Shown here: positions 17,909-44,028 of the stretch, piece after piece
Position numbering within the stretch: the stretch's first letter is position 1
Layout: every line of letters starts with the position of its first letter
Source of the DNA: an uncultured Gammaproteobacteria bacterium
GTDB taxonomy: Bacteria; Patescibacteriota; Patescibacteriia; 2-12-FULL-60-25
NCBI GenBank assembly: GCA_964584725.1
Contig: CAZPAP010000002.1
Coordinates: forward strand, 1-44,028
Reading direction: 5' to 3'
Length of the DNA: 44,028 bases
Program-made: the position numbers and the translations under genes
The notes under the pieces: generated by a model
Seen by the model: only the letters and a program-made list of their open reading frames with translations
Database searches by the model: none
Told to the model about the DNA's origin: nothing

Positions 17909-17920
17909 CAGACCACTATT

Positions 17921-24770: not shown

Positions 24771-24771
24771 T

Positions 24772-25305
24772 ATGAGTCCTGAATCCTTTGCTCCGCGCTC
24801 TGCGTCTCCAAAAAGACCAAGAGCCCGCAAAATCGAGCCTGGTTCCAACCCAACACCCGAGCGGCCGAGGATTTATAGTGCTGAAGAAAAACGCCAATTG
24901 ATTTTGGCGCATTCTGAGCGCGATGTGGATCCGGCCCAGCGCTTTTCCTTGTGGGCAGGAGTCGCGATCTGTTTCTTGGCCATTGCTGTCGGCTGGGTCT
25001 ACAGCATGCGCCAGACTATTGCCGGAGCTTTTGACTCACCGGTCGTGCAGACAATCAATGATTTCAAGACAGATGGAACAGACGGAACCCAGTTGCAGAA
25101 AAATATCGATGAGCTGATGAACCACTTGAACACGGCCCAGTCCCAGAGCGCAGCTGAATTGCAGACCATGAAAGCCGTGGCAGACCAAGTGCAAGAGGCG
25201 GCCTCAAGCAGTGGAGCCAGACAGGATCTATTCAAACCAGCGACAGCAACCAGCCCGAGCAAAACACCTAACCTCCCGTCCGGAGTTAAAGTCGAAAATT
25301 ACTAA
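24772..25305 (+). CDS. hypothetical membrane protein
   Basis: Basic/Pro-rich N-terminus, one TM segment ([18 protein letters not shown]), Gln/Ala-rich C-terminal part. ATG at 24772 follows the stop of the previous gene. Confidence 0.55.
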
Positions 25306-25313
25306 TAATCAGT

Positions 25314-27818
25314 ATGGCAGACAAAGAACAAATCGTTCCCCAGGAACCAATAATCGGAAATGTCATAAACCAGTCGCTGTCTGAAGAAATGCGCAGCAGC
25401 TATTTGGATTATGCCATGTCCGTCATCATCCAGCGCGCCTTGCCGGATGTGCGTGACGGCTTGAAGCCCGTGCATCGCCGCATTTTGTATGCCATGTGGC
25501 AGGAGGGTTTGCGCTCAACAGCCAGGTTCAGGAAGTCTGCGACTGTGGTCGGTACTGTGCTCGGCAACTACCATCCGCATGGCGACTCGGCCGTGTACGA
25601 TGCCATGGTGCGCATGGCCCAGGATTTTTCCTTGCGCTATCCGCTGGTCAGGGGCCAAGGCAACTTCGGCTCCATGGACGGCGACAGTGCTGCTGCTTAC
25701 CGCTATACCGAGGCCAAGCTCTCAGCCATTGCCGAAGAGCTGTTGTTTGATATTGAAAAAGACACGGTTGATTTCATCCCGAACTTCGACGGCACCAAAA
25801 AAGAACCATCAGTCCTGCCGGCCAAGCTGCCCAACCTTTTATTGTTCGGATCAGTCGGTATTGCCGTGGGCATGGCCACCTCCATCCCAACCCACAACCT
25901 CACGGAATTATGCGATGTCATTTCAGCTACGATCGATGATCCTGAAATCGATATCGATGACTTGCTGAAGATTATGCCAGGCCCGGATTTCCCGACCGGC
26001 GGCATCATCTATGACAAGAATGCCATTAAGCAGGCTTATGCCACGGGTAAAGGCGGCATTGTTATCCGCGCCAAGACCGAGATCCAAGAGGAAAAAGCTG
26101 GGACGTTCAAGATTATCGTGAATGAAATCCCATATGCAGTGAACAAAGCGACTTTGCTTGAGAAGATCGCGACTTTGGTCCAGGAAAAGAAAATCGAGGG
26201 CATCCGGGACTTGCGCGACGAATCAAACAAAGACGGCGTGCGCATCGTGATCGAGCTCAAGAAAGACGCATACCCGAAGAAAGTCCTGAACCAATTGTTC
26301 AAGATGACCCAGCTGCAAGAGACTTTCCACGTCAACATGCTGGCCCTTATTGACGGAGGCATGGTGCCGCGCGTTTTGAATCTCAAAGACGTGATCCACG
26401 AATACATCCAACACCGCCAGGTCGTGGTCCGCCGCCGCACAGAATTTGATTTGGCTAAAGCCAAAGATCGCGCCCATATTTTGGAAGGTTTGCGCATTGC
26501 TTTGCTCAAGATCAACGAAGTGATCGAGACCATCAAGAAATCAAAAGACAAAGATGAAGCCAAGGTCAATTTGATGAAGAAGTTCAAGCTGTCAGAGGCC
26601 CAGACCATGGCCATCTTGGAAATGCGCTTGCAGCAATTGGCTAACCTGGAGCGTTTGCGCGTTGAGCAGGAATACAATGAAAAGCTCAAGCTTATCGAAG
26701 AATTGGAAGCCATCCTTAAGTCAGTCAAGAAGATGCTCAGCATCATCAAGGATGAGGTCAAAGAACTCAGGGATAAGTATGGGGATGAACGCCGTACAGC
26801 TGTGGTGCCGCACCCGGTCGGCGAGTTCTCGATCACGGATCTGATTCCGGACGAGTCCACCATCGTGATGCTGACCAAAGACGGCTACCTCAAGCGTTTG
26901 CCGCCGGATACGTTCCGCACCCAGGGCAGGGGAGGCAAGGGTATTGCCGGTTTGTCCACCAAAGAAGAGGACGAGGTAGACCTCATGCTTTCTACGAACA
27001 CGCATGCTGACATCTTGTTCTTCACCACGCGCGGCCGCGTGTTCCAGCTCAAAGCGTATGAGATACCGCAGGGCAGCCGCACGTCCAAAGGCCAGGCTAT
27101 CGTGAATTTCCTACAGCTTGCGCCAGGCGAACGCCCAGCCACGGCTTTGGCTTTGGATGATATTGAAGGCGCCAAGTTCCTGATGATGGTGACTGGCCAA
27201 GGCACGATCAAAAAAGTCGGGCTTGAGGATTTTGCGCATGTGCGTCGCAGCGGTTTGATCGCGATCTCCTTGCACGATGGCGATGATTTGCAATGGGTCA
27301 AGCCGACTGACGGCAAAGATGAAGTCAGCCTGGTGACGCGCTTGGGTCAATCTATCCGCTTCTCAGAAGAGGATGTGCGCGCCATGGGCAGGAATGCATC
27401 TGGCGTGCGCGGCATCAAACTCAAGAAAGACGATTCAGTCATTGGCATGGATATCATCAATCCGAAGCTGGCTGACAAAGGCATGTTCACCTTGTTCTGC
27501 ATTGCAGAAAACGGCGTGGGCAAGCAAACCAATATCACGGAATTCAAGACTCAAGGCCGCGGCGGCTCAGGCATCCGCGCCATGAAGGTCACGCCCAAAA
27601 CCGGCCCGGTTGTCGCGGCTTTCGTGGCCCCGACCGACGAGGAGCGCGACTTGATGCTCATCAGTAAAAAAGGCGTGGTCATCCGCGTGGCCTACAAAAC
27701 AGTGCCAACGCTCGGCCGCGATACCCAAGGCGTGCGCATCATGCGCTTCCGCGAAGAAGGGGACTTGCTCTCCAGCGTGACATTCGTGAATTGCGATAAC
27801 GAAGAAAAAGGGGAATAA
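25314..27818 (+). CDS. gyrA: DNA gyrase subunit A
   Basis: [39 protein letters not shown], active-site context [10 protein letters not shown], and C-terminal beta-pinwheel repeats. Confidence 0.97.
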
Positions 27819-29961: not shown

Positions 29962-32160
29962 ATGTATCTTAGGAGGCTAGAGCTGCAAGGGTTCAAGACT
30001 TTTGCCCAAAAGACTGTTTTGGAATTTGAGCCGGATTCAGACGGGCGCCGCGGCCTGACTGGAATCGTGGGCCCGAACGGTTCGGGCAAATCAAACGTGG
30101 CTGATGCAGCGCGCTGGGTCATGGGCGAACAAAGTCTGAAATTATTGCGCAGCAAAAAATCAGAAGATGTAATTTTTTCCGGCACAGACAAAAAACCGCG
30201 TGCTGGTTTCGCCGAAGTGAACATGACGATCGTCAATGACGACAAGCCTGATCTGGACTTTTCCGAAATCGTCATTACGCGCCGTCTATATCGCGACGGC
30301 CAATCCGAATACGAAATAAACAAGCAATCAGTCCGCCTTACCGACGTCACCATGCTGCTCGCCCAGTGCGGCATCGGGCAGAGGACATACAGCGTCATCG
30401 GCCAAGGCATGGTGGACGACATCCTGTCTGCTTCGCCGGCCGAGCGCAAGGAGTTTTTTGATGAAGCAGCGGGGCTTAAACCCTTTCAGCTCAAGCGCCA
30501 ATCCAGTGAAAATAAATTGGAGGCCACTAAAGAGAACTTGCGCCAGTCCGATGCTGTACTCAAAGAAATCGGGCCCAGGCTGCACTCGCTGGAGCGCCAG
30601 GTCAAGCGTTTGGAACAACGCGATGCTTTGGATGAAGAGCTGAAGAACCTTGAAGCGCAATATTACGGCGGCACTTGGAAACAGCTTAAGGATCTGCTCG
30701 CCTCAGCCAAGCAAAAGCATGAGAAGATGGCGCAAGAGGTCGCCAAAGCATCTTCTGCGTCCGAAGCTTTGGAGACTGAGCTGAACAAGATGGAATCAGC
30801 CAATCCGCCATCTGATGAATTCAGGAAAATACGCGAAAACATTGATGCTTTGGCAGTCCAGCGGGATAAGCTCAGGGAAAAGCAGATGCGGCTTGAGGCT
30901 TCGCGCGAAGTGGCTAAAATCAGGGCTGAGAAGCCGTGGACGCCTTTGCCGCTCTCAAAAATAATCGAGTCCATTGAAGACGTACGCGTCAAACAGGAGG
31001 ACCTGTTGAAACTACTGGAATCCGGAAAAGTAGATGCGGGCAAGCTTAAACAGATCGTTGAAGATCTGAATCGCAAGGTCACGGACTTGGTCGCAAAATT
31101 GCAGAGGCCGGCGCCAGAGCCAGAATCCCAAGCCAGCGATCCGAGCTTGGAAAAAGAGATCAGCGCAATCGCGAATGAGATGCTTGGTTTGAATGAAAAG
31201 ATCAGGGCAGCGCAATCAGGTCTGGAAGAGTGGAACAAGCGCGAGCAAGGCCAACGCACGCATATTTTTGAGATCCAGCGTCAGCTTTCAACGCGTCGCC
31301 AGGAACTGCAGTCTGCAGAACGGCGCTTGAGTGAGGTTGCGGTTGAGTTGGCGCGCGCTGAAACAAAAAGAGACGGATTTTTGGAAGAAGCTAGGGCGCA
31401 TATCGAAAATGCAGACTCCAGACTCGATCAATTGGCGACAGCGGCGACCAGTAACGAACCGTTGGAGGGTATTTTGCCCAAGATCACCAAGCTCCGCACC
31501 CAGCTGGAATGGATCGGCGGCATTGACCCTGAGGTCATGAAAGAATATGAGGAAACGAAAAAGCGGTTTGATGATTTGAATACGCAGGTTGAAGATCTGG
31601 TGAAAGCCATGGTGTCTTTGGAAACGATCATCAAGGAATTGGATCTGACCATCACAGAACGGAGCAAGACATCTTTCCGCAGGATGAATTTTGAGTTCGG
31701 GAATTATTTCAAAAAGATTTTCGGAGGAGGGGATGCCAAGCTGATTGAAGTGTTCGAGGAGCCAGAGGTCAATGAGCTGGGCGAAGTCATTAAAGCCGTG
31801 GATCCGAATGCCGGGCCATCCGGGGTTGATATCCAGGCTACGCCGCCAGGTAAAAGGCTTAAAGCCATCTCGCTGCTGTCCGGCGGAGAGCGCGCCCTAG
31901 TATCTATTGCCCTTATCTGCGCCATTATGGCCACCAACCCCTCGCCCTTCGTGGTTTTGGACGAAGTGGACGCAGCTTTGGATGAGTCCAACTCGGCCAA
32001 ATTCGCCGAAATCATCAGTACGCTGGCTGACAAGACCCAGTTTGTGATCATCACGCATAATCGCGCCACCATGGGACGAGCTCATATTTTGTATGGAGTA
32101 ACCATGGGAAATGATGGAGTTTCTCAACTTTTATCAGTAAAACTACAAAATCTCAAATAG
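29962..32160 (+). CDS. smc: SMC-type chromosome segregation ATPase, unusually short (732 aa)
   Basis: Head motifs GPNGSGKSNVADA, GQGMVDDIL...FDEAAGL, LSGGERALVSIAL, VVLDEVDAALD. Only coiled-coil-like sequence lies between them, with no recognisable hinge. Confidence 0.8.
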   Translation: MYLRRLELQGFKTFAQKTVLEFEPDSDGRRGLTGIVGPNGSGKSNVADAARWVMGEQSLKLLRSKKSEDVIFSGTDKKPRAGFAEVNMTIVNDDKPDLDFSEIVITRRLYRDGQSEYEINKQSVRLTDVTMLLAQCGIGQRTYSVIGQGMVDDILSASPAERKEFFDEAAGLKPFQLKRQSSENKLEATKENLRQSDAVLKEIGPRLHSLERQVKRLEQRDALDEELKNLEAQYYGGTWKQLKDLLASAKQKHEKMAQEVAKASSASEALETELNKMESANPPSDEFRKIRENIDALAVQRDKLREKQMRLEASREVAKIRAEKPWTPLPLSKIIESIEDVRVKQEDLLKLLESGKVDAGKLKQIVEDLNRKVTDLVAKLQRPAPEPESQASDPSLEKEISAIANEMLGLNEKIRAAQSGLEEWNKREQGQRTHIFEIQRQLSTRRQELQSAERRLSEVAVELARAETKRDGFLEEARAHIENADSRLDQLATAATSNEPLEGILPKITKLRTQLEWIGGIDPEVMKEYEETKKRFDDLNTQVEDLVKAMVSLETIIKELDLTITERSKTSFRRMNFEFGNYFKKIFGGGDAKLIEVFEEPEVNELGEVIKAVDPNAGPSGVDIQATPPGKRLKAISLLSGGERALVSIALICAIMATNPSPFVVLDEVDAALDESNSAKFAEIISTLADKTQFVIITHNRATMGRAHILYGVTMGNDGVSQLLSVKLQNLK

Positions 32161-32298
32161 GCTTATTTTAGCCAAAAAATTGCCCTTGACGTGTGGAAAA
32201 CAGCATGAGATATTATGACTGTTCCTTATAGGCGTCTTAAGCAAGATGCCTTTTGTCATCTTTTGGCCTAACAGAGCGTTAAAAGGGCATGACAACCC

Positions 32299-32327
32299 TT
32301 GACAGGCCCAAAGATATGTGGTATAAA
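32299..32327 (+). promoter_or_regulatory. consensus-like promoter upstream of the DUF3006/VanW genes
   Basis: TTGACA, 17 nt, TATAAA, with TG at -15/-14. Confidence 0.6.
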
Positions 32328-32375
32328 TACAAATCCCGCAAATTAGATAAACAAGGTTTTTTCACTTCAGAGGCT

Positions 32376-32482
32376 TTAAGCAATCCGCATCCACGACAAG
32401 CATGGAATCTCTTCGCAGGCTTACGCTGGTCTCCGGACTCGCATCTTCCTGTAAAAAGGTTTCTTGGATGCGGATTGCTTAA
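32376..32482 (+). repeat. perfect 18-bp inverted repeat TTAAGCAATCCGCATCCA around a 71-nt loop
   Basis: Left arm 32376-32393, right arm 32465-32482. Lies in the leader downstream of the promoter. Confidence 0.85.
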
Positions 32483-32560
32483 GGTCTTTGTTTATTTCCG
32501 CGTCTCAGCTAAAATACAGACGCAAAGGATCGACTTTTGCTTAATCAGAACATCCAGCAC

Positions 32561-32743
32561 ATGTTAGAAGGAATCGTAAGGGAAATTCAAGACGACAAAG
32601 TCCTGATAGAAACAGAAAAAGGGAATGCAGCAATTCCTGTTTTTGCTTTTGACCGCGCTCCGCAAATAGGGGAGAAGATCCAGATTTCCGTGTCCAAGGA
32701 CGATGCAGCGAAAAACATAATCAACAAATTACTCACTGAATAA
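32561..32743 (+). CDS. DUF3006-like small protein
   Basis: 60 aa from the ATG at 32561. MLEGIVREIQDDKVLIETEKGNAAIPVFAFDRAPQIGEKIQISV resembles the DUF3006 pattern. Immediately precedes the VanW gene. Confidence 0.55.
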   Translation: MLEGIVREIQDDKVLIETEKGNAAIPVFAFDRAPQIGEKIQISVSKDDAAKNIINKLLTE

Positions 32744-32745
32744 AT

Positions 32746-34578
32746 ATGTCTGAATCAAAAGCAAAAAATAAATTGTTGCGGACGGTTTTGGCCTGGACAG
32801 GCATTACGGTCGGACTTCTATTTTTGCTTTTCATTATTTTCGGTTCAGGCGCACTGGTCTATGCCAAGATGTATGAAGGCAAGATCTATCCAGGCGTCAA
32901 AGTCTTGAATATCAGGCTGGACGGCTTGACTCAGGAGGAGGCGCGCAAGCTGGTGGACAAGAATATCGATGTGGCTTTGGCCAATGGGCTGTCTTTTACA
33001 TTGAACGGACAAACAGCGAATCTTTCGATTTCATCTGGCACTGATTCGCCTGATTTGGTCAGGTTTGATGCGGACAAAGCAGTCAAAGACGCTTATAAAG
33101 TCGGGCGCGAAAGCGGCGTCCAGAAAATCATCTACGAGATCCTGCGAACGCGGATTTATCCGATGAGCGTGCCGGTCAACATTGAATTGGATGAGACAGG
33201 GATCACGACCGGACTCAAAGCCCAATTGCACGAAAAATTGCCGGAACCGAAAAATGCCACGTTCAATTACGTGACCAAAAAAGGCGCAGAACCTGAAATA
33301 AAGATCATACCTGAAGCAGACGGATCGGAATTGGATTTAGCTGGAGTTTTCGAGAAACTGACTGCCCAGGCAAAAGTGCTGAACTTCCAGCCGATGACTT
33401 TGCATGTCAAAAAAATAAAGCCCCAGACCAAAACGAGCGACTTGGAACCTTTGTTGCCTCAGGTCGAAAATATTTTGGCGCGACCAAAACTGAAATTCAC
33501 ATATGATGGCAAGGCTTATGCCATTTCAACATCGACTTTGGCCACTTGGATTACGGTCAATCTGGAGAACAAGCAAGTGACTTTGGATAAACTGAGTTTC
33601 GCCTCAAGTATCCGCATGCTGGCTAAGGACGTTGAAGCCGAAAGCAAGACCGGCAAGCTGGAGATCAAAGACGGAAAAATCTCTTCGTTCAAAGCCGGTA
33701 CTGTCGGCCGCAAAATCAACATAGACAAGACATTGGACCCGGTCCTTAAATCTTGGCCGCCCTCATCCACTTTCCCTTTGATCGTGGAAGAGGCGCAGGC
33801 GCAGATAACGGGCGATGAGCTGGACCAGTTCGGAATCAAGGAATTGATCGGAGTCGGCACATCAGACTTCAGGAATTCGCCGCCTAACCGTTTGAAGAAC
33901 ATCAAAAAAGCAGTCAACGAAAAAGTGAATGGAGTCTTGATTGCGCCTGGCGAAACTTTTTCCATGCTCAAATCTTTGGGAGAAGTCGATGGTGTACACG
34001 GCTGGTTCCCTGAGCTGGTCATCAAGGGCGATAAGACTTTGCCTGAATTCGGAGGTGGGTTGTGCCAGGTAGGAACAACCATGTTTCGGGCTGCGATCGC
34101 CACGGGTTTGCCGGTCGTGGAAAGGCGCAATCACTCGTATCGAGTCGTGTATTACGAACCAGCCGGCACGGATGCCACGATCTATGACCCTTCGCCGGAC
34201 TTGAAGTTCACCAATGATACGGGCAAATATATCTACATCAACGCCTATATCACTGGTACGAAAATCTATTTTGAGATGTGGGGCACGAAAGACGGAAGAA
34301 CAGTGACCCAAACCAAGCCCAGCATCTACAACATTGTTGCGCCGCCACCGACCAAACTGACCGAGACTTTGGATTTGGCGCCCGGCGTCAAGAAATGCAC
34401 TGAATCAGCCCATGCTGGAGCTGATGCTGATTTTTCCACGACTGTAATCTACGCAGACGGCCAAAAACGAATGGACAGCTATCATAGCCATTACAGGCCT
34501 TGGCAAGCTGTTTGCCTCATTGGAGTAGCTCAGCTGACTCCGCCGACAGACGCGACCCAGGTAACGCCAGCGCAATAA
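32746..34578 (+). CDS. VanW family protein
   Basis: N-terminal TM anchor. VanW core GGGLCQVGTTMFRAAIATGLPVVERRNHSYRVVYYEPAGTDATIY. Confidence 0.85.
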   Translation: MSESKAKNKLLRTVLAWTGITVGLLFLLFIIFGSGALVYAKMYEGKIYPGVKVLNIRLDGLTQEEARKLVDKNIDVALANGLSFTLNGQTANLSISSGTDSPDLVRFDADKAVKDAYKVGRESGVQKIIYEILRTRIYPMSVPVNIELDETGITTGLKAQLHEKLPEPKNATFNYVTKKGAEPEIKIIPEADGSELDLAGVFEKLTAQAKVLNFQPMTLHVKKIKPQTKTSDLEPLLPQVENILARPKLKFTYDGKAYAISTSTLATWITVNLENKQVTLDKLSFASSIRMLAKDVEAESKTGKLEIKDGKISSFKAGTVGRKINIDKTLDPVLKSWPPSSTFPLIVEEAQAQITGDELDQFGIKELIGVGTSDFRNSPPNRLKNIKKAVNEKVNGVLIAPGETFSMLKSLGEVDGVHGWFPELVIKGDKTLPEFGGGLCQVGTTMFRAAIATGLPVVERRNHSYRVVYYEPAGTDATIYDPSPDLKFTNDTGKYIYINAYITGTKIYFEMWGTKDGRTVTQTKPSIYNIVAPPPTKLTETLDLAPGVKKCTESAHAGADADFSTTVIYADGQKRMDSYHSHYRPWQAVCLIGVAQLTPPTDATQVTPAQ

Positions 34579-34590
34579 ACCGAAAGATTG

Positions 34591-34599
34591 TGGTATAAT
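34591..34599 (+). promoter_or_regulatory. extended -10 element TGgTATAAT of hsp20
   Basis: The -10 ends 6 nt before the ATG at 34606. This implies a leaderless or near-leaderless mRNA. Confidence 0.5.
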
Positions 34600-34605
34600 C
34601 TCAGC

Positions 34606-34968
34606 ATGCAATCATCAGCGCTTGATTGGTCTTCGAACTTTGAAGAAGGCCAGCTCTCGGTAGACGTGTATCGCAAAGGCGATATGCTGGTCATCAAATC
34701 CTTGGTGGCCGGAGTCTCTCCGGATGATTTGGATATCTCTATCCATGGCGATTTGCTCACCATAAAAGGTAAGCGCGACATGAAAAAGGAAGAATCAACC
34801 GAAGATTGGTTTTATCAGGAGTGCTATTGGGGGTCTTTCAGCCGGTCAATCGTATTGCCATACCAGGTCGCGGCCGATGCCACAGAAGCTAAGCTGAAAA
34901 ACGGTATTTTGGAAGTCAGGATTCCTATTCGGGCTGATGGCAAGCAGGTAAAGGTCAAATGGGGCTAA
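34606..34968 (+). CDS. Hsp20/alpha-crystallin family small heat-shock protein
   Basis: Alpha-crystallin domain pattern DVYRKGDMLVIKSLVAGVSPDDLDISIHGDLLTIKGKR...FSRSIVLPYQV...AKLKNGILEVRIP. Confidence 0.9.
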   Translation: MQSSALDWSSNFEEGQLSVDVYRKGDMLVIKSLVAGVSPDDLDISIHGDLLTIKGKRDMKKEESTEDWFYQECYWGSFSRSIVLPYQVAADATEAKLKNGILEVRIPIRADGKQVKVKWG

Positions 34969-34994
34969 GATAATAAAAAAATTACCCACATGTT

Positions 34995-35014
34995 CCCGCA
35001 TTTGCGGGTTTTTT
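34995..35014 (+). terminator. hsp20 intrinsic terminator
   Basis: CCCGC-ATTT-GCGGG followed by TTTTTT. Confidence 0.6.
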
Positions 35015-35032
35015 AGCGCTTGTTTTTGTGGT

Positions 35033-35797
35033 ATGCTGTTAGGGCGAAATATGCCGGAGGATAAAGCAAATTTCCGAGGTGCTTTGGATGGACATTGGAG
35101 AAAATTGAACAAAAGTAAAAGAGTCGCGTTCATTACCTTTGTAATTGGCGCGGTTTTGCTGTTTTCCTTTTCTTTTTTGAATTTAATGGACAGTATTTCC
35201 TCTCCTTTCCGCGGTTCTGTGGCTCAGCTTGAGAAAAACAAAGACATGCTTAAGGATCCTGAGACTGAACAGAATGCCCTGGCCAAAAGGACTGACACTG
35301 ACGGCGATGGCTTGTCTGATTGGGATGAGGAGAATGTTTATCATACGTCGCCTTATCTTTGGAGCACGGCCGGGGACAAAATGCCGGACAACGTGAAGCT
35401 GGCTTTGGGCGAGAATCCTTTGTGCAAACATGGAGAAAAATGCAATGCCAGCCAAATGAAATTTGATTTGGGCAGCTCTACCTTGCCTTTCGTCGATTTG
35501 GTGAACAAAACAAACAACGTCAATTCGACTTTGAATGAATACATGCTGGGCACAAGCGCCCAGGCTAAGGATTTTCAGGCTCAGGCCAGCAGCACGGGTG
35601 TGGATTTGAGCTGGAAGAACCAGGTGCCGCGCGACCCCGTGGTTTTGAGGAAGGCTTTGGTCGATTCAGGCAAGATAACCGAAGAAGAATTGAGCAAAGT
35701 CACGGACGATCAACTGCTCAAGATGTTCGACGATGCCATGACAGAGCTCGAGCAGAAGCAAGCTAATATCTCAAGTTCGACCCAATCGGGCATTTGA
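35033..35797 (+). CDS. membrane-anchored protein with a thrombospondin-type-3-like Ca-binding motif
   Basis: TM anchor VAFITFVIGAVLLFSFSFL, motif DTDGDGLSDWDEEN. The start could instead be the ATG at 35051. The stop lies 2 nt before the giant ORF start. Confidence 0.65.
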   Translation: MLLGRNMPEDKANFRGALDGHWRKLNKSKRVAFITFVIGAVLLFSFSFLNLMDSISSPFRGSVAQLEKNKDMLKDPETEQNALAKRTDTDGDGLSDWDEENVYHTSPYLWSTAGDKMPDNVKLALGENPLCKHGEKCNASQMKFDLGSSTLPFVDLVNKTNNVNSTLNEYMLGTSAQAKDFQAQASSTGVDLSWKNQVPRDPVVLRKALVDSGKITEEELSKVTDDQLLKMFDDAMTELEQKQANISSSTQSGI

Positions 35798-35799
35798 TT

Positions 35800-38700
35800 A
35801 TGTTCAAGACACGATTGCTCTTTAGCAAAATCGGCCTGATGATCGGGCTCGTGTCTGTTTTGGCGATTTTAGTCGCACCAATCGCCAGTGTCCATGCAGA
35901 ATCCTCTGAACCTGTTGCGCCAGAAGTGCCGCCAGTCTACATCCCTGGGGATTGTAATGTACTATTTGCTCAGTTGGCCGCCCTTCCGCCCACAGATCCG
36001 AATCGAAGCTTATTGAATTCCGATTTCATCAGGTGCTTGAATGATGATTTGACCCGTTCCCAAATTTGGCAAGGCCAAGTCCAGGAATATTGGTACAGGC
36101 GCAGCAAGCAAATCAACCAAAGCTTTGAGTTTAAGATCAAGATCGCGCTTTTGGGCGGCGTTTTGAATGCCATGGGCTATGCGGCCCAAAGGATCGCATA
36201 TGAAACTGCCCAATTGATTCTGACCGGAGGCCAGGGGAGCGAACCCATGTTCTGGAACCAGCCGATCGGCGATTGGATAAAGAACGTAGGCGATCAGAGT
36301 GCAGGCATGTTCATCAGCGAACTTGATACTGCAATCGGCACATATACCGAAGAAAACCTCGGCACGAAGATCAGTTTTTGCAGCAAACCCAACCCTTTGT
36401 CGCTTTCCATGTCTTTGTCCGGCGTCCAGCCCATAGAGATGATGAAGCCGACTTGTACGCTTTCGGCCATGGCCAGCAATTTTTCGGCCATCGCAGACAT
36501 GGTCGAGTCGGGTGACGCCTTGAGGATACAGAAAGCCCAGTTTGACCCTAAAGCGAACGACTTGGCGATCGGCATAGAAATCAATAATCGGAAAGTCCAA
36601 GGTGAATTGGATTACATGAAGAACCAGTTGGCTCAACGCATGGAATCGCAAGGCATGAAGAGCATCACAGACGCCATTTCAGGCAAAATCAAATACCCAA
36701 GCGTTCTGGCCAACAGTTCTTTGGAGAACATGGATCCAGTGGCTGTTGCTTACAAGAATCAGCAGCAGCAAGAGAGCTACATGATGGATGCATATTGGCA
36801 GACAGGCTTGGAAGGTATAGCTTTCCTGACCGTATCGACATTCGCCAATACAATGGTGGTGGGTATTTTGCAGAGGATCTTCAAGCAAGATACTCCGGTG
36901 GGCGATTCCATCAGTGCCACACCCAACCAAATGAAGATCAAGTTCACTTCTTTGCAGAATGCAGATGCTTCAGGCGATGCTGTGGATCTTTATGAACGGC
37001 AATCTTTTGCCAAGGCTTTGGGCGATTATATCGTCCCGAATTTCACTTCAACCGAAGATAAGGATATTTTGGGTGAACTTTCCACGTGCGTGACTCCGCG
37101 GGGCAGATGGAGCTGTGCCATGGATCAGGCGTTAGCCGTGGCCATCAGCGCCGGGACAAAAGACGGGGCTTTGACCGTCGGTCGCGCCGCAGGCATCGGA
37201 GTTGAGGGTTCGACTTTCAGTCCGAACGGCCAAGGCGTGCATGCAGATTGGGAACTAATTCCGGAAAGCGACATAAAGAACAATACTGACCCGGCTTGCG
37301 CTCAGCGCGCATATTGCGCAGGCAACCTCAAGAAAATGAGGCTGGCCCGCATCTTGCCCATTGGCTGGGAATTGGCCGCCAATTCGATCTACAACATAAA
37401 GAAGAGCGGCAAATATGTCTTGCTCGGCGAAGTCATCAGGAACTTCTACAACTGCAATGATAAAGGCGAAATAGACAAAGACCATCCGTGGTGCCACTTA
37501 GTCGATCCGAATTGGATTTTGACTTCGCCCAAGTATCAATGCCGAGCTAAGGGTTATGGCGACACGATAATGCCAGGTACGGGCACGAGGCTTGAGGATT
37601 GCGGAGACGTAGTTTCGTGTTTGGGTACGAACCAAAACAACGAGTGCACCCAAGGCTATGGATATTGTTTGGCCGAACGCCCGGTCTATAGGTTTGATTC
37701 AAAGACCTGCGAACCGCAGAATGCCTCGTGCCGCACTTATAGCGGGCCTTCGGGCATGGCTTCGTATTTGCGCAATAGCGTGGACAGGGGACACTGTTCG
37801 GAAGAGAACATGGGTTGCGCCTGGTATGCGACAGAACGCTATGTCACCAGCACCCAGACAGCCGACGGCTTATGGGTGGGCACAGTCACCAGCGGACCGC
37901 GCGTCTATTATGATGGAACATCCAAGCCGTGTACGGCCGAGGGCTGCAGCAAGGTCTATAGGTTTGAGCCTGGCCAGCAAGCCTTGAATTTAGTGCAGAA
38001 CGGATCGTTCGAGAGCGCGCAAAAGGATGACCAAGGTTCCATCAAGAGCCTTGATGGCTGGCACACTGGCTCGCAATGTTCCTTGGACAAGTCTGTTTTG
38101 AGCGACAGCTCATATGATAAGGCCAGCAATCTGTCCCTTGATGGTTCGTCATGCAAAGGCGCTGAGCAGGATATCCAAATCACGCAAAACAGATATTATG
38201 TATTGAGTTTTTACTTGAAATCACAAGCGAAATCAGAGAAAGACACCTCGATCGTCACATTCTATAAGACAGTCGGCGGAAGCCAGCAGCCGATCACATC
38301 GAACATTGCGGCTTATGAAGATTGCGTGGCTTCAGGCAATGGGTTGACTTTCAGTAAACCAGCCAGCGATACCTGGATCAGGACAACGTGTAAATTCGTT
38401 TCGCCCAAAGACGCGACATCCATGAAGCTTGTCCTATCTGGAGCGCCAGGCGTATTGCGCTACGACGCCATCCAGCTGGAAGAAGGGCAGAACCCGACAT
38501 TGTTCGGGGAGGGTGTGGCTGCCCAATTAGCCGAGTCATATTTGAGGATCGCACCGGATGCATATAAATGTACTGGTAATGATACGACCGATAACCCGGC
38601 TTGCAAGCGCTTTGCCCGTGTTTGCGCCCAGACTGATGTCGGTTGCCAAGGCTATAAAGATACCGAAGATCTGACAGCGCCCGAAATACCGGCCTCGCTA

Positions 38701-41700
38701 TCCACTAAAGATCTGTGCCCGGCGATCTGCGCAGGCTATGGCGAATACCGCAAGCTGGCTTCTTCGTTCGATTTGGTCAAGAGCGCTGATCCGGTTTATA
38801 ACGATCCGAACGATGACACGATCGCGTATTTCATTCCGTCATTGGCTGCGCAATGCTCTTTGGCCGAAGTCGGTTGCGAGGCTTTCACTAGCCTGGAGGG
38901 CGCGACCAGCACAGGGGAATCGGTCTCATACTACAATCAACTCAGGTCTTGCGAAAAACCGAGCGCCAACTCAGCCACCTTCTTTACTTGGGAAGGTTCG
39001 GATGTGACAGGCTATCAATTGAAGACCTGGTCTCTGATCAAATCCGATAAAGATAACTCACCCAAGATTTTGCTTAAAGGAGCGGCTCTCGGGTCGATCA
39101 AAGACCCTGGCACATGCAATGAGATGACTTGGAAAAAAGGCACTGATCCTGATTGCCGTCAGTTTTATGATAAGGACGGCGCAGTCTATTACAACTATTA
39201 TTCGCAGACTATTTCGTCGGACATTGCCTGTACATTGATGCGCAAGAGCAATTCATCCGACGTGGATTGCAGCAAGACAGGCGGACAATACGTAACCGAG
39301 ACCAAGGATTGCATGTATCTGGCCTTGCCGGCCGAAAGCAATTCCTGCTCAGCATCAGCCGGAGGCTGTCGCGCTTACATGGGCCCGACAGGCCGGAATG
39401 CGGTCGCCGTGCTGTTCGAACAGTTCAATGATCCGAATAGTTTGGCCAAATTCGCGTTCGATAACAATAAAGTTAAAGTCCAATTATCAAAAGAAAGCGT
39501 CTTGGTCGGCGACCAGTCGGTCAAGGTCGAATCAGTCAAAGCCTCAGACATGGACCTGAAGATGGTCGTGCCGATTGGTACGACGAGCACCTTGTATCGT
39601 ATTTCATTCTGGGTAAAGACAGACAATGTTTTGGCTGAAAACGCTGATGTCAGCATTGATGGCCAATCTGCGGGTTCTTTTGTGCCGGATGTCAAATGGA
39701 AACGCTTTGAATTCGGCCCGTTCGCCATCAAAGGCACGACCCAGGGCGCTACTACGACCGCACAAATCGCCTGGCATTTCCCGGCAGGATTCAAAGCCGC
39801 ATATCTGGATACCATCAGGCTGGATCAATTGAATGACACGCAATTCGTGATCAAGGACAAATGGTCGATTCCGGCTGCTTGCGATGCGACTTATCCGGAG
39901 AATATTCCTGAGCCGCATGCCATGGCCGGTTGCCGCGCCTACACTGACCGCGACGGGAACACGGCCTTTGTCCGCAAGTTCAGCTCTTTGTGCCGCGAAC
40001 AAGCCATTGGCTGCAAAGCTTTCATTGATACGCGCGGCAATGCTGATCCATATCCGAAAACAATCAGCGTCACTGGTACGCCAGGGCCTTCCAAGAAAGG
40101 CAACGACAACTCGAATAATCCGGCTGACCTCAAAGCCAAGGCATATGACGAACAATTCTTAGGCGATTGGTCCGAGACCACTGATCCATACAGATATTAT
40201 TACGCCATAGACGACCAACGCGCCCAATGCGACAGCGCAGAGAACATGTGCCGGGCTTTCGGTAAGCCAGTCTTCATGCAGACCGGGTTGAGTTTGGCTA
40301 CCACGACATATGCAGTCATGACTCAGGATGTTGATATCTACTCCAACCAAAAACAGGTCTATGGGTTCCAGACAGTACTGTTGAAACACGATTTCAATTC
40401 TTACGCGGATGACAACGGGAATCTTAAGCTCGCGTGCCGCAAAGATGAACTTTTCTGCAACAGGTTCCAAAGCGGCAATGTGGTCGAGTATTTCAGGGAT
40501 CCTGCCCAGCATGCTTGCGTGTGGCAAAAAGCCATCAAGCTGACCAAGAACGAAGCCTACAATATAATGCAGGACGGCGTTTATTCCGGCTGGTTCAGGA
40601 AAGGCACGAGTATCCCATGCTACCCGGAGTACCTTGGGTCAGGCGAACAATATCTGCTCCAGTTCACCGGCGAACTCAGGTATGCGGGCTGGGGAGCTGA
40701 GTGCCCGCAAGACCAAAGCGAGTGCGCTGAGTTCGTGGATCCGAATGATACATCCGATGCATCCCAGCCTTTGGGCAGGTCGTATTTCATGATCAACAGC
40801 AATAAATTGGATACACGGTCATGCGGGGGCGTTGTTGATCCGTTGGCTGGCTGTGTGCTGTTCAACAACAAGAACATCTCAGAACTGCAGGCCAGCAGCA
40901 AGGCGACATATGGCAAGATCCAGGCAGAGCACGGCGCGCCACAAAGCCCGGTGGATTGTCAGAAAGATCCGGAAAATCCAAGCTGCAAAGCAAACGGTAC
41001 GTGCGAGAATTTTGCGAAAAAACCTGGCGCGAATTATCTCTGTTCATCCGATGATTTCCAGAAGAACATCAACTCTGCCGTTCAAGAATACGAAAAGAAT
41101 AAGCAGTCTTGCGCCAGCGACGACGATTGCGTGCTCACGGTCAATAATAGTCCGTCGGTTACATGTTATGTAGGCAAGGCATATGGCACGTGCCAGCTGC
41201 CCAAGAACGACTCGAACATTGTCCTGAAAGTGAAATTGGACAGGGAGTGCGCGCGCTGGATGGGTTGCCGCACGGGTGAGACGGTTTATGATCCGTCCGC
41301 ACAGAAATACGTCAATCAATGCTCCCAGCTTGAATTGTGCGAAAAGAACGGTTCAAAGAACGATGATATTTTCTGCGCTAAGTTTTCGGACAGGACCAAA
41401 GAAGACCTTTTGTCAGTCGGCCAGTTCATCACGCCAGAAACATACAGCTCCAGGTTGGTCGGTTATGGCAAGCTGGATTATTCGGGCTACACGATTCCTA
41501 ACCAATATCTGCTGACGGATATCCAGCCGGATGCTGTCGGGTACCAGATTTTGTCAGGCGACCTCAAGGAACAATACAGATACGACCAGCGCTTGGTGGC
41601 TGAGATACCGTTGAGCAATGAAGTGGTGAGTTATACGGACAATAATTTCAAATCTTTACCGTCGGGTTATAGCTTGTGCCAAGACCAAAGGACACAGCGC

Positions 41701-44028
41701 ATCGGTTATCGTTTGCCGAACTCCGATATCTGCATCTTATCCATCAGCGGAGACGAGGCCACGGCCATGAGCCAGAACAAGCAGGGCTTGTCCAAGGATA
41801 TCCAACAGATATATAAAGAGTTCGCAGCGAGCAATGTCTCGAACCAGAATGCCTTGCTCCAAAGCGCAATGCCCAGTCCAGAGTGCCAGCTCTTCCCGGA
41901 AATCGATTCCCCATTGCCTAACCAGTATGTAGCAAAGTGGAACGATGCTAGCGTGCCGCCGACTCCGGAAACGATGTTGACCGGGTTTGAAGGTTCGAAA
42001 GCTTGCGTATTCGGCGAAGATTGTTCTTGCTCATATCGCAAAGCCAGATATCAGCAGAATCTTGAAAGATATTATTCGCTATCAGGCTCTGCGCCGGCTG
42101 TTGGAGTTTGCTTCGGCGGCGCAAAAGAGGGGAGCGCTTGCGTGCCAGGCGGGTATATTCCGGTGGATGCCAAAAACAGGGTTATGGTTTCTCAACAAGG
42201 GAATTTATCGGACAATACATGCCAAGGCGGATCATGCGTGCCCATCCAAGATGTAGTGGTGATGAACGGCAAATACGCCTATTGCCTTGAGCGCGACAGG
42301 ACCAGGATCGATGGGATATCGCAAAGCACATCGCCGTGCCTGACTTGGAGCCCAGCCACAGTCTTGGGCGGCAAGTATGATCTGGCCCATTATTCGCCGA
42401 CTGCCGGATATCTCCCGCCGCAAGGAGCAGGCGAATATTTCTGCACCAGCGGCGCCAATCCGCAGAAATTGGATACGTGGAGTACGTTTACCGACTCAGG
42501 CAGCCCGGCAGATGGTTATTGGGGCAAAAATTTCAAGTCTCCAGGAAAACTGGTCCAGTTCGGCTTTTCCAGGGCAGATGTCTGGTCCATCCATTCATAT
42601 GATGATTACCCACAAGTCGCTATTGATGGCGCGACCAATATCGCGTATTCAGGGAATCTTGATTGCTTGAAGTCCGGTGATTGCAAGAATGATTTGGTGA
42701 CAGGGCAGGCAACACAGAACATGCGCTATCAATGCCGACGCACTTCTTTGTGCGAAGGCGTATTGGATTCCGAATCAAAGAGATATCCAAACCCGGCCGA
42801 AGGAAACGAGAATGGTGGATTGGATGCTAATCCGTCTGAAGGCAGGTGGATCATGACCGGCGAAGACATAAACAGTTCATACATGGAATATTTCATCCCG
42901 GATGTGAACTCGACCTATGGCCAGAACGAAAAATATTTTGATTATCATTTCGGGATGTTCAAGTTCAGCATCGAGCCGTTCGCGGCCGGTACTGCCTGCA
43001 AGTGGAATCCGCGTTGGCTAGGCATGACTCATCAAGTGGTCGAAGACATCAGCAAGAATACGGCTGCTGAGTTCTCTTGCCAGAATTATCTGCAGCAGGT
43101 CCAAACCGCATCCCAAAATTTTTACAGCAGGTTCTCAGCCGCTTTCCCTGGAGTCTTGAGCCGCGATAATGAGGCTGTGCTTAAGGATACGCAGGAAACG
43201 CCAGTCAAACTCAAGTGCACTTTCGGGCCTTGGGGGCAGTGCTTCTATAAATATTGGGAAACCGGCTTCCAGAACGGCAACCAAAGCGAATTTAAGTGGC
43301 CGTTCATGACGCATAAGGGTAAATTGGACAAGTTCAGCTTTGCCGAACAGTCAGCTTTGTATTATGCCGAGGAGTGCCGTTCGGGCCAGCCGTATTTCGG
43401 CATCCGCGCTGTGTTCCAGAACATCAACGATAAGATGAACGCCTTAGCTCCGGATGAAGCGCGCAAAGTGAGCTTGGATGGCCCATGGCAATTCGTGGGT
43501 TTCTGGGTTACGACCTGTTTGCCGACCAAGAACCGTCAGGATCCAGGCTGGTTGTATTTGCGCATGGACGTGGTCACGGCTGATGTGTGCCACGAAGTCG
43601 GACAGGTGATCGCTCCGAATACGCGTGAGAGCGCAGCTTTTGCAGATAGGGTTTGGTCCCAGGGCGGGTTCTTTTTGCCGGTGCTTGGCATCAGATATAC
43701 ATCGCGCAATGAACCATTCGGTTCGGCCATAGCCACAGGCAAGATCGGTCCAGATCCGATGCTAGTAGGCGCATCCACGCCATTGTCTGACAGCGCCCTA
43801 AAAGCCCCGACATTCATTGATTCCGGAGTCACGACCGCGCCTTTGTTTGCCCAGCAAAATGCCTGGGTGCCGCTGACCAATCTTTTTGCCCGTGTGTATA
43901 AGGTTTATCGCTGGGATCCAGTGCCTGTGTTTGATGGGAGTTATGCTTGCGTAAAAGGCACGTCCAAAGGCAAGGCTTGTACTTGGGGTGCGAATTCTTA
44001 TCAAGGCCTGAAAGATTGCGGAGATTAC
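35800..44028 (+). CDS. giant secreted Cys-rich modular surface protein, 3'-partial (at least 2743 codons)
   Basis: Reading by eye, frame 1 has no stop from the ATG at 35800 to the last base of the window. The track lists no frame-1 ORF here, only short ORFs in other frames. Signal peptide MFKTRLLFSKIGLMIGLVSVLAILVAPIASVHA/ES. Two NGSFE-type beta-sandwich (CBM4_9-like) modules and recurrent GCxA[FY] Cys motifs. Confidence 0.85.
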   Translation, partial: MFKTRLLFSKIGLMIGLVSVLAILVAPIASVHAESSEPVAPEVPPVYIPGDCNVLFAQLAALPPTDPNRSLLNSDFIRCLNDDLTRSQIWQGQVQEYWYRRSKQINQSFEFKIKIALLGGVLNAMGYAAQRIAYETAQLILTGGQGSEPMFWNQPIGDWIKNVGDQSAGMFISELDTAIGTYTEENLGTKISFCSKPNPLSLSMSLSGVQPIEMMKPTCTLSAMASNFSAIADMVESGDALRIQKAQFDPKANDLAIGIEINNRKVQGELDYMKNQLAQRMESQGMKSITDAISGKIKYPSVLANSSLENMDPVAVAYKNQQQQESYMMDAYWQTGLEGIAFLTVSTFANTMVVGILQRIFKQDTPVGDSISATPNQMKIKFTSLQNADASGDAVDLYERQSFAKALGDYIVPNFTSTEDKDILGELSTCVTPRGRWSCAMDQALAVAISAGTKDGALTVGRAAGIGVEGSTFSPNGQGVHADWELIPESDIKNNTDPACAQRAYCAGNLKKMRLARILPIGWELAANSIYNIKKSGKYVLLGEVIRNFYNCNDKGEIDKDHPWCHLVDPNWILTSPKYQCRAKGYGDTIMPGTGTRLEDCGDVVSCLGTNQNNECTQGYGYCLAERPVYRFDSKTCEPQNASCRTYSGPSGMASYLRNSVDRGHCSEENMGCAWYATERYVTSTQTADGLWVGTVTSGPRVYYDGTSKPCTAEGCSKVYRFEPGQQALNLVQNGSFESAQKDDQGSIKSLDGWHTGSQCSLDKSVLSDSSYDKASNLSLDGSSCKGAEQDIQITQNRYYVLSFYLKSQAKSEKDTSIVTFYKTVGGSQQPITSNIAAYEDCVASGNGLTFSKPASDTWIRTTCKFVSPKDATSMKLVLSGAPGVLRYDAIQLEEGQNPTLFGEGVAAQLAESYLRIAPDAYKCTGNDTTDNPACKRFARVCAQTDVGCQGYKDTEDLTAPEIPASLSTKDLCPAICAGYGEYRKLASSFDLVKSADPVYNDPNDDTIAYFIPSLAAQCSLAEVGCEAFTSLEGATSTGESVSYYNQLRSCEKPSANSATFFTWEGSDVTGYQLKTWSLIKSDKDNSPKILLKGAALGSIKDPGTCNEMTWKKGTDPDCRQFYDKDGAVYYNYYSQTISSDIACTLMRKSNSSDVDCSKTGGQYVTETKDCMYLALPAESNSCSASAGGCRAYMGPTGRNAVAVLFEQFNDPNSLAKFAFDNNKVKVQLSKESVLVGDQSVKVESVKASDMDLKMVVPIGTTSTLYRISFWVKTDNVLAENADVSIDGQSAGSFVPDVKWKRFEFGPFAIKGTTQGATTTAQIAWHFPAGFKAAYLDTIRLDQLNDTQFVIKDKWSIPAACDATYPENIPEPHAMAGCRAYTDRDGNTAFVRKFSSLCREQAIGCKAFIDTRGNADPYPKTISVTGTPGPSKKGNDNSNNPADLKAKAYDEQFLGDWSETTDPYRYYYAIDDQRAQCDSAENMCRAFGKPVFMQTGLSLATTTYAVMTQDVDIYSNQKQVYGFQTVLLKHDFNSYADDNGNLKLACRKDELFCNRFQSGNVVEYFRDPAQHACVWQKAIKLTKNEAYNIMQDGVYSGWFRKGTSIPCYPEYLGSGEQYLLQFTGELRYAGWGAECPQDQSECAEFVDPNDTSDASQPLGRSYFMINSNKLDTRSCGGVVDPLAGCVLFNNKNISELQASSKATYGKIQAEHGAPQSPVDCQKDPENPSCKANGTCENFAKKPGANYLCSSDDFQKNINSAVQEYEKNKQSCASDDDCVLTVNNSPSVTCYVGKAYGTCQLPKNDSNIVLKVKLDRECARWMGCRTGETVYDPSAQKYVNQCSQLELCEKNGSKNDDIFCAKFSDRTKEDLLSVGQFITPETYSSRLVGYGKLDYSGYTIPNQYLLTDIQPDAVGYQILSGDLKEQYRYDQRLVAEIPLSNEVVSYTDNNFKSLPSGYSLCQDQRTQRIGYRLPNSDICILSISGDEATAMSQNKQGLSKDIQQIYKEFAASNVSNQNALLQSAMPSPECQLFPEIDSPLPNQYVAKWNDASVPPTPETMLTGFEGSKACVFGEDCSCSYRKARYQQNLERYYSLSGSAPAVGVCFGGAKEGSACVPGGYIPVDAKNRVMVSQQGNLSDNTCQGGSCVPIQDVVVMNGKYAYCLERDRTRIDGISQSTSPCLTWSPATVLGGKYDLAHYSPTAGYLPPQGAGEYFCTSGANPQKLDTWSTFTDSGSPADGYWGKNFKSPGKLVQFGFSRADVWSIHSYDDYPQVAIDGATNIAYSGNLDCLKSGDCKNDLVTGQATQNMRYQCRRTSLCEGVLDSESKRYPNPAEGNENGGLDANPSEGRWIMTGEDINSSYMEYFIPDVNSTYGQNEKYFDYHFGMFKFSIEPFAAGTACKWNPRWLGMTHQVVEDISKNTAAEFSCQNYLQQVQTASQNFYSRFSAAFPGVLSRDNEAVLKDTQETPVKLKCTFGPWGQCFYKYWETGFQNGNQSEFKWPFMTHKGKLDKFSFAEQSALYYAEECRSGQPYFGIRAVFQNINDKMNALAPDEARKVSLDGPWQFVGFWVTTCLPTKNRQDPGWLYLRMDVVTADVCHEVGQVIAPNTRESAAFADRVWSQGGFFLPVLGIRYTSRNEPFGSAIATGKIGPDPMLVGASTPLSDSALKAPTFIDSGVTTAPLFAQQNAWVPLTNLFARVYKVYRWDPVPVFDGSYACVKGTSKGKACTWGANSYQGLKDCGDY

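Follow-up and report, generated by a model that had tools for sequence, protein, structure and literature searches.

Carbohydrate-binding modules (CBMs) of the CenC type usually lie beside a glycoside hydrolase or within a phage tail fibre, and the giant proteins described from the Omnitrophota reportedly reach lengths of up to ~85,000 amino acids (aa). Among these giants, which comprise Archaeovorin and Dockerin types, three Dockerin-type examples measure at least 30,000 aa, and the proteins are highly repetitive or enzyme-rich (HEAT, dockerin, peptidases, glycosyl hydrolases) and sit beside loci resembling type II secretion systems (bioRxiv 10.1101/2023.11.21.568195). Vampirococcus lugosii, a bacterium from the Candidate Phyla Radiation (CPR), encodes several giant membrane or surface proteins of 1,392-4,163 aa in its genome, with WD40, PKD, integrin, fibronectin and DUF11 domains, and these have been proposed as factors of cell-cell contact or attachment (PMC8080830). 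Here we describe a gene pair at the end of a 44,028-nucleotide (nt) stretch of DNA (contig CAZPAP010000002.1 of assembly GCA_964584725.1; hereafter the window), in which the gene of a small membrane protein, the partner, immediately precedes that of a giant protein cut off by the window's last base. We give an even chance to the explanation that the pair is an exported, partner-tethered, glycan-binding envelope fibre or scaffold typical of Uhrbacteria-like Patescibacteria.

The Vampirococcus proteins are the closest concept, being likewise very large, predicted surface proteins in a reduced genome, but the family of the window's giant differs from them in having one member per large genome record, in being non-repetitive and extremely Cys-rich, in lacking those domains in our Pfam scans, and in its obligate small partner with TSP3-type calcium-binding repeats. 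The Omnitrophota giants resemble the pair in their extracellular location, their occurrence in ultra-small bacteria, their CBM-like folds and the presence of TSP3/calcium motifs within the system. In contrast to them, our family spans 2,563-4,620 aa, carries a Sec signal, is non-repetitive and keeps TSP3 on a separate small protein, and Pfam scans found neither HEAT or dockerin repeats nor embedded enzymes in it. The CenC-type CBMs themselves (CBM_4_9; CBM4, 9, 16, 22) have a counterpart in aa 722-900 of the giant, which score above the Pfam threshold and are modelled as the same beta-jelly-roll, with target-normalised TM-scores of 0.70-0.73 to the CBM16 entries 2zex and 2zey and 0.69 to the CBM22 entry 4xup; what is unlike them is the setting, a 4,300-aa Cys-rich protein without a detectable catalytic domain.

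The first-pass annotation of this DNA had claimed that frame 1 of the forward strand stays open to the last base of the window and that the protein continues beyond it. Direct translation bears this out: from the ATG at 35800 to base 44028 there are 2743 codons and zero stops. At ~50% GC the chance of a stop-free run of that length is roughly (61/64)^2743, or ~e^-131. The closest in-frame stop on the 5' side is at 35764, and the ATG at 35800 is the first ATG. The frame had escaped the supplied track of open reading frames (ORFs), again as that annotation had it, because the listing skips any ORF that is cut by an end of its source sequence, so that only short, out-of-frame ORFs appear across these 8.2 kb. 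The 2743 residues are collinear with "hypothetical proteins" from metagenome-assembled genomes (MAGs) of Patescibacteria, with 46-55% identity and query coverage of up to 100%. Because these collinear homologues measure 4150-4620 aa, we estimate that ~1,500 residues of the giant would lie beyond the window and that the full gene would span ~13 kb and encode ~4,300 aa.

Seven homologues from other assemblies (P0003, P0004, P0005, P0006, P0009, P0011 and P0012) cover 100% of the 2743 residues, and in another relative, L012, the giant is 88% identical, the gene order is that of the window and the neighbouring genes are 93-99% identical. Since the homologues are collinear and the L012 gene order matches, a misassembly or a missed frameshift in the giant gene appears very unlikely. 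The explanation that the gene is an artefact, either an assembly chimera or a pseudogene open by chance, can claim as its sole point that the window cuts the gene off. Set against it are the seven collinear homologues, the gene order kept in L012, a base composition that is even along the window, and an excess of synonymous over nonsynonymous changes in the folded domains, and we consider it extremely improbable.

We then delineated the giant from its N-terminus onwards (Table 1). The signal peptide with a V-H-A/E site that had been read from the sequence is present, and an AxA-type cleavage site recurs among the homologues; the peptide is probably removed on export. The mature N-terminus that follows, aa 34-100, is only 43% identical to L012, compared with 88% for the whole protein, and its codon differences are 38 nonsynonymous and 14 synonymous. 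This patch seems to evolve at about a neutral rate, not clearly under positive selection. It may be a linker free of constraint or, alternatively, a variable tip that is exposed. For the N-terminal region, helix is predicted at aa 52-411, and AlphaFold2 places helices at aa 68-142, 156-187, 255-283 and 313-361 with a predicted local distance difference test score (pLDDT) of 35-85. The 1200-aa models were made with a 52-row alignment, a 21-sequence alignment having proved too shallow (mean pLDDT 50). A profile of this N-terminal domain found zero relatives in Pfam and the Protein Data Bank (PDB). Of the amphipathic and hydrophobic helices first proposed for this region, the helicity is supported by prediction, and the hydrophobic ones are not conserved transmembrane segments: a hydrophobic helix at about aa 337-359, considered as an internal membrane anchor, was rejected on finding that its hydrophobicity is not kept across the family, and in 12 full-length relatives no hydrophobic segment recurs apart from the signal peptide. 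The giant itself carries neither a membrane anchor nor a lipobox or sortase signal.

The most conserved part is the Cys-rich core that comes next, with 40-61% conservation across 60 species, a pLDDT of ~90 at aa 420-620, and invariant residues N509, K512, R514, R517, E524, W572 and R597 in addition to its paired Cys; its profile, too, found no relative in Pfam or the PDB. The first jelly roll is the one part that can be assigned to a family. Its Pfam match to CBM_4_9 (PF02018, aa 730-828) has an E-value of 3.8e-7 and 31 bits, compared with a gathering threshold of 25.9 bits that 6 of 11 family members also pass. Foldseek matched it to CBM16/CBM22 with probability 1.00 and target-normalised TM-scores of 0.70-0.73, the model having a pLDDT of ~85 there, and a structure search of BFVD returned phage CBM-cenC tail proteins. 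At the centre of this module (aa 751-850) conservation falls to 17-18%, among the lowest values along the protein.

The second jelly roll was recognised by aligning profiles with hhalign, which related it to the first with a probability of 95% and an E-value of 2.2e-8; it is 28-30% conserved, compared with 45-61% for the Cys-rich scaffold. The disulfide-rich modules A and B, one behind each jelly roll, also align with each other (probability 73%, E-value 2.9e-5; aa 918-1033 onto aa 1372-1490), and aa 980-1200 are modelled as beta-rich with a pLDDT of 85-93. Because both jelly rolls are related, and the Cys-rich modules that follow them are related as well, the arrangement points to an ancient duplication of a unit of jelly roll plus Cys module. 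The motif C-x6-C-x-[AG]-[YF], preceded by a beta-strand, occurs at least nine times in the giant. Searches of Pfam and the PDB recognised no domain in aa 1701-2743. In total the 2743 residues include 95 Cys, which probably form disulfides and the majority of which the alignments show to be invariant or almost so; the long Cys-rich extracellular region with beta-sandwich modules that had been described earlier is thus present, with two such modules located. Variable stretches interrupt the conserved scaffold at the centre of module 1, at aa 34-100 and at aa 2250-2350. Ratios of nonsynonymous to synonymous codon differences of 0.15-0.44 in the folded domains indicate that these domains are under purifying selection.

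Across the whole protein, sequence and profile searches of Pfam, NCBIfam and the PDB placed the one CBM_4_9 domain and nothing else, in agreement with the earlier statement that no described adhesin family matches. Matches to GspL_C, ZP Ig-like and choice-of-anchor domains were weak and below threshold, and we rejected them. Foldseek on whole 1200-aa models gave only jelly-roll matches among the top 50 hits. Full-text literature searches found no paper that describes the family, which is annotated just as 'hypothetical protein'.

The family is large. An exhaustive HMMER search with aa 1-1200 of the giant against 1.84 billion cluster representatives (50% identity) returned 1,290 representatives at E<=1e-3, of which 1,030 also reach E<=1e-30; most measure 2,600-4,600 aa. 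Of three word-indexed homologue searches, the one with the whole-length alignment added no new members and the one with the conserved core only seven fragments. A scan of one genome per species in GTDB, the Genome Taxonomy Database, found 100 relatives, from which we kept 79 loci on records titled Candidatus Uhrbacteria, Falkowbacteria, Parcubacteria or 'Patescibacteria group'. The giant is thus not confined to the organism of the window and recurs across Uhrbacteria, Falkowbacteria and similar genomes, with 30-55% identity across genera. Three of the loci lie on records of 1.08-1.5 Mb, and each of these has a single giant locus; the L030 chromosome (1,084,458 bp), for example, carries an ORF of 3,645 aa, ~1% of a ~1.1 Mb genome. 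Collinear homology, dozens of invariant Cys and the TSP3 partner upstream together argue that the giant belongs to a large, undescribed, lineage-wide family. Separately, the Patescibacteria-type locus (SMC-VanW-Hsp20-partner-giant) also occurs on contigs deposited as Candidatus Methylomirabilis sp. (L077) or as Gammaproteobacteria (L008, L015, L016 and others), names that probably reflect mis-binning or placeholder taxonomy. An Uhrbacteria MAG (L010, contig of 1.32 Mb) has an open giant frame of just 2,975 aa at 9953-18877, compared with ~4,300 aa in relatives from its clade, with a match to the downstream gene at 24940-25941; the short frame probably results from an indel error or from real truncation of the gene.

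Among the sequences that we collected for the family (P0001-P0170), 135 near-full-length representatives have a median length of 3,168 aa (range 2,563-4,620 aa) and 4.1% Cys, and their fraction of internal sequence repeats is 0. They share a conserved C-terminal domain, marked by DWGDG in 71 of the 135 and by a DNWGWC-like motif in 94. The C-termini of 12 full-length members have neither LPXTG nor a transmembrane anchor, and their tails are variable and non-hydrophobic. As a separate observation, 44 of the 135 end in [VILM]-x-P (ITP, VTP or VEP, for instance); the final conserved strand, RPW[IV]V[YF].G[SA]..., is common to all, and the tails vary past that strand; the [VILM]-x-P end could be a signal for C-terminal processing or sorting.

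The partner accompanies the giant throughout. Of the 79 loci with upstream sequence, all 79 encode an orthologue, with 23-93% identity, directly 5' of the giant. In the window the giant had been placed 2 nt after the stop of a membrane-anchored protein with a calcium motif, and that description is borne out: the partner's TGA is at 35795-35797, the giant's ATG is at 35800, and the partner has a predicted membrane helix and carries DTDGDGLSDWDEEN. The first twelve residues of this motif, DTDGDGLSDWDE (aa 88-99), fit the pattern DxDxDGxxDxxE, and a degenerate second repeat and a Cys pair follow, to about nt 35440. Judged by the positive-inside rule, the partner would adopt an N-in, C-out (type-II) topology. 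Its match to Pfam TSP3_bac scores 19.1 bits, under the gathering threshold of 25 bits, and that of the L072 orthologue 20.4 bits. The 72 partner orthologues that we aligned have a median of 246 aa and conserve a membrane-proximal PF motif, the TSP3/Cys block and a C-terminal helical block; DTDGDG..D.dE is kept in at least 80% of them, and the full block, KR-DTDGDGlsD-dE...TsPyL-dt-gDg-pDnvE...C..g..C, comprises two TSP3-type repeats and a Cys pair. The partner thus resembles TSP3_bac proteins in a D-x-D-x-D-G-x-x-D-x-x-E calcium motif conserved in its orthologues, and is unlike them in having one or two sub-threshold repeats in a bitopic protein of 250 aa whose remainder matches nothing.

Partner and giant are probably co-translated. 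An alternative in-frame TTG at 35794 would start the giant with a 4-nt TTGA overlap with the partner stop, and among homologues the two genes overlap by 4 nt in L001 and stand 7 nt apart in L003. On the other side of the pair, the terminator behind hsp20 is the strongest hairpin reported by a consensus scan of 32000-36200, with 5/5 G-C pairs followed by TTTTTT; stem-loop and T6 occupy 34995-35014. Because it divides the pair from hsp20, partner and giant appear to form their own transcription unit, starting at ~35020. The terminator leaves just ~20 nt before 35033, so that the ATG at 35051 is a plausible start for the partner; this suggests that ATG 35051 is the true start and that the promoter is very compact. 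TGGTATGCT, an extended -10-like element, overlaps 35033.

Neither the upstream nor the downstream neighbours seem to belong to this unit. VanW+PG_binding_4 (32746-34578), Hsp20 (34588-34968) and a short SMC lie upstream, and the first-pass annotation was right about the position of VanW and hsp20; the association is only syntenic, and we rejected a functional partnership on account of the intervening terminator and of the loss of synteny in distant relatives, compared with retention of the partner in 79 of 79 loci. Synteny with VanW, Hsp20 and SMC is limited to the nearer clade and is missing in the most distant loci (L059, L060, L063-L067, L071, L072, L074, L076, L078, L080, L082 and L083), where the annotated upstream neighbours are GroEL, a release factor, an epimerase and KsgA in L072, and KsgA in L066. 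A universal downstream partner was likewise rejected: a gene for a Cys-rich protein of ~500 aa is found in just 8-12 loci, and NusA merely follows in 29 of 49. As an observation of its own, members of the closest clade (L001 22785-24428; L003 23207-24712) encode, 3-10 nt past the giant stop, a Cys-rich protein that is secreted, measures ~500-550 aa, and has repeated C..G.W....C modules and no Pfam match. Because the upstream synteny is clade-limited and no downstream gene is universal, the functional unit would be the pair of partner and giant.

Described families of large surface proteins fit this unit poorly. RTX/LapA-type adhesins, exported by type 1 secretion, and the MSCRAMM and SRRP adhesins with LPXTG resemble the giant in size, extracellular location and presumed binding. 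In contrast to the RTX/LapA type, the giant has an N-terminal Sec signal and ~4% Cys and has neither tandem repeats nor a C-terminal type 1 secretion signal, and there were no RTX or Ig-repeat Pfam matches in it or in the family members scanned; unlike LPXTG adhesins, its full-length homologues carry neither LPXTG nor a C-terminal transmembrane anchor, the C-terminus of the window's own protein lying beyond the window. It departs from S-layer proteins in that Pfam and NCBIfam detected no SLH, CWB2 or other wall-anchoring domain in it. Among toxins, the Foldseek matches to Cry, Vip3 and CDTb involve the jelly roll alone, over ~170-190 columns, and where alignments to CDTb extend further, the TM-score is 0.13 and the root-mean-square deviation 24 Angstrom. 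By these comparisons no described adhesin, S-layer or toxin family appears to fit the giant, the sole membership it holds being that of its CBM_4_9 domain.

Because the giant is exported, Cys-rich and anchorless and is always co-encoded with a bitopic protein that has a calcium-binding ectodomain, a partner-tethered fibre is the most economical model. According to this model the partner, a small type-II (N-in) membrane protein, would expose an ectodomain with TSP3 calcium-binding repeats, and the second gene, translationally coupled to it, would yield the ~4,300-aa giant. The latter would leave the cell by Sec export, lose its signal peptide, and fold into a non-repetitive chain of disulfide-stapled modules exposing at least two CenC-type lectin jelly rolls. 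It would be held at the surface by the partner, probably via its N-terminal helical domain, and/or be retained by its lectin modules binding wall polysaccharide, and would serve there as a fibre or scaffold that is long and rigid and binds glycans. The glycan could be either on another cell, for attachment, or on the cell's own wall, making the giant an envelope scaffold: the single locus per large record and the strong conservation favour a core envelope role, and the variable jelly rolls, the N-terminal patch and the likeness to phage receptor-binding proteins favour recognition of a foreign surface. The core-gene profile fits the first at least as well as it fits a host-specific adhesin. 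The giant surface protein for host attachment or envelope remodelling originally proposed holds as an exported, Cys-rich protein of surface type, and its attachment to a host is conjecture. Several points weigh against the tethered fibre. High conservation and one gene per large genome record are atypical of host-specific adhesins, and the ~1,500 C-terminal residues of the window's protein lie beyond the window. Carbohydrate binding by the CBM-like modules is assumed from their fold, the model of the N-terminal helical domain has only low-to-moderate confidence, and the novel domains might hide an enzyme or a pore-former, since the confidently modelled ones other than the CBM matched no structure among Foldseek's top 50 hits.

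The core-gene look of the family, with one locus per 1.08-1.5 Mb record in a family of ~1,290 clusters, could instead mean that the giant is a self-directed structural component of the envelope, an S-layer-like or wall-organising exoskeleton that shapes or protects the envelope instead of contacting other cells, its lectins binding peptidoglycan or secondary wall polymer of the same cell. Purifying selection on the folded domains, the invariant Cys scaffold, the neighbourhood of housekeeping genes and the investment of ~1% of a ~1.1 Mb genome all suit such a role. However, the searches turned up neither SLH, CWB2 or LysM nor any other known wall-anchoring domain, a non-repetitive protein of 300-500 kDa is far outside the known S-layer proteins, and aa 751-850 and aa 34-100 vary far more than the scaffold, which is unexpected for binding to the cell's own invariant wall polymer; we regard an exoskeleton as a possibility of some weight, though an improbable one. 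Stretches that vary within a conserved scaffold, at the centre of module 1, at aa 34-100 and at aa 2250-2350, speak for the host-attachment adhesin of an episymbiont, whose conserved stalk would present variable lectins and a variable N-terminal patch to host glycans. The resemblance of the CenC-type jelly rolls to phage receptor-binding and tail-fibre modules, and the giant surface proteins proposed as attachment factors in another CPR bacterium (PMC8080830), agree with this. Yet each large record has one locus, identity across genera is 30-55%, the giant lacks the tandem repeats that adhesins typically have, and aa 34-100 change at an approximately neutral rate and not clearly by positive selection; we consider a dedicated adhesin decidedly unlikely.

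A secreted lytic or pore-forming effector, in which the helical bundle inserts into a membrane and the CBM targets it, loosely as in three-domain Cry toxins or Vip3, or in which the core hides a hydrolase, would account for a domain of long helices followed by a CBM-like jelly roll with no anchor, and Foldseek does list Cry, Vip3 and CDTb through the jelly roll. Those matches are confined to the CBM domain, however; no toxin or hydrolase family was detected in the sequence, the internal hydrophobic helix is not conserved as hydrophobic, and the conserved C-terminus speaks against a polymorphic toxin. We think that an effector is very improbable, and retain the partner-tethered fibre as the best explanation of the pair.

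Table 1. Features of the partner-giant unit in the window (amino acid numbering is that of the partner or the giant, respectively).
Feature	Position	Strand	Basis or remark
Intrinsic terminator CCCGCATTTGCGGG (CCCGC-ATTT-GCGGG), then T-run	34995..35018	+	After hsp20; upstream boundary of the unit
Partner gene, 254-aa bitopic membrane protein	35033..35797	+	ORF and translation; start maybe ATG 35051
Partner transmembrane helix (predicted), aa 31-52, VAFITFVIGAVLLFSFSFLNLM	35123..35188	+	Read from sequence; K/R-rich N-terminus before the helix
TSP3-type calcium-binding motif DTDGDGLSDWDEEN, aa 88-101	35294..35335	+	In the partner's ectodomain
Coupling junction	35794..35802	+	Partner stop TGA 35795-35797, 2 nt, giant ATG 35800
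Giant ORF	35800..44028	+	First 2743 codons of an estimated 4,300; window end cuts the gene
Sec-type signal peptide, aa 1-33	35800..35898	+	VHA/E cleavage site; hydropathy peak 2.6, aa 11-29
Unconstrained or hypervariable mature N-terminus, aa 34-100	35899..36099	+	Least conserved, least occupied block of the family alignment
All-alpha N-terminal domain, aa 101-420 (~320 aa)	36100..37059	+	AlphaFold2 model; invariant Cys 194 and 219
Cys-rich alpha+beta core, aa 421-721	37060..37962	+	Most conserved part of the giant; paired C-x6-C motifs
Jelly-roll module 1, CenC / CBM_4_9 type, aa 722-900	37963..38499	+	Pfam and Foldseek
Disulfide-rich beta module A, aa 901-1202	38500..39405	+	C-x6-C-x-[AG]-[YF] motifs; conservation 46-54%
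Jelly-roll module 2, aa 1203-1350	39406..39849	+	Diverged second copy of module 1
Disulfide-rich module B, aa 1351-1700	39850..40899	+	Homologous in part to module A
Further Cys-rich extracellular sequence, aa 1701-2743	40900..44028	+	Conserved blocks alternating with variable ones

The remainder of the window is core chromosome, with ComEC, RecA, FtsK, RpoB, RpoC, YebC, RuvC, GyrA, ClpP, DHH, RbfA and SMC; the whole window contains no tRNA and no Rfam match. The SMC protein (29962-32160) has just 732 aa, compared with the 1,181 positions of TIGR02168, which it matches in two stretches, head and tail; its coiled-coil arms appear roughly halved, and the homologous loci L001 and L003 have a form of 735-736 aa. 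Directly after FtsK, 10082-10804 encodes a 240-aa protein with an unusual pairing of an N-terminal HTH_25 domain (RodZ-like) and a C-terminal 'Glucodextranase domain B' beta-sandwich. Six sizeable ORFs had no Pfam match at the thresholds used: 5548-6537 and 24757-25305 on the forward strand, and 2467-2964, 10864-12087, 13229-13933 and 22102-22698 on the reverse. The forward strand is sparsely coding at 12.1-14.4 kb, upstream of rpoB.

We suggest that the pair is a concrete candidate for how the exteriors of CPR/Patescibacteria are built and make contact with other cells. In genomes of ~1 Mb, almost all sampled members devote ~1% to the giant gene under purifying selection, which implies a central function. 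The giants also offer structural biology several domain families that are novel, well conserved and rich in disulfides. A bolder proposal, which we put forward as speculative and rather unlikely, is that the pair is a lineage-defining envelope organelle of Uhrbacteria-type (ABY1-like) Patescibacteria, combining a calcium-dependent membrane dock with a disulfide-rigidified fibre of ~0.3-0.5 MDa and built from at least three domain types without known relatives (the helical N-domain, the Cys-rich core and the C-x6-C beta modules). If that were true, the fibre would be the principal interface of these ultra-small cells with their partners, and a new kind of bacterial surface machine.

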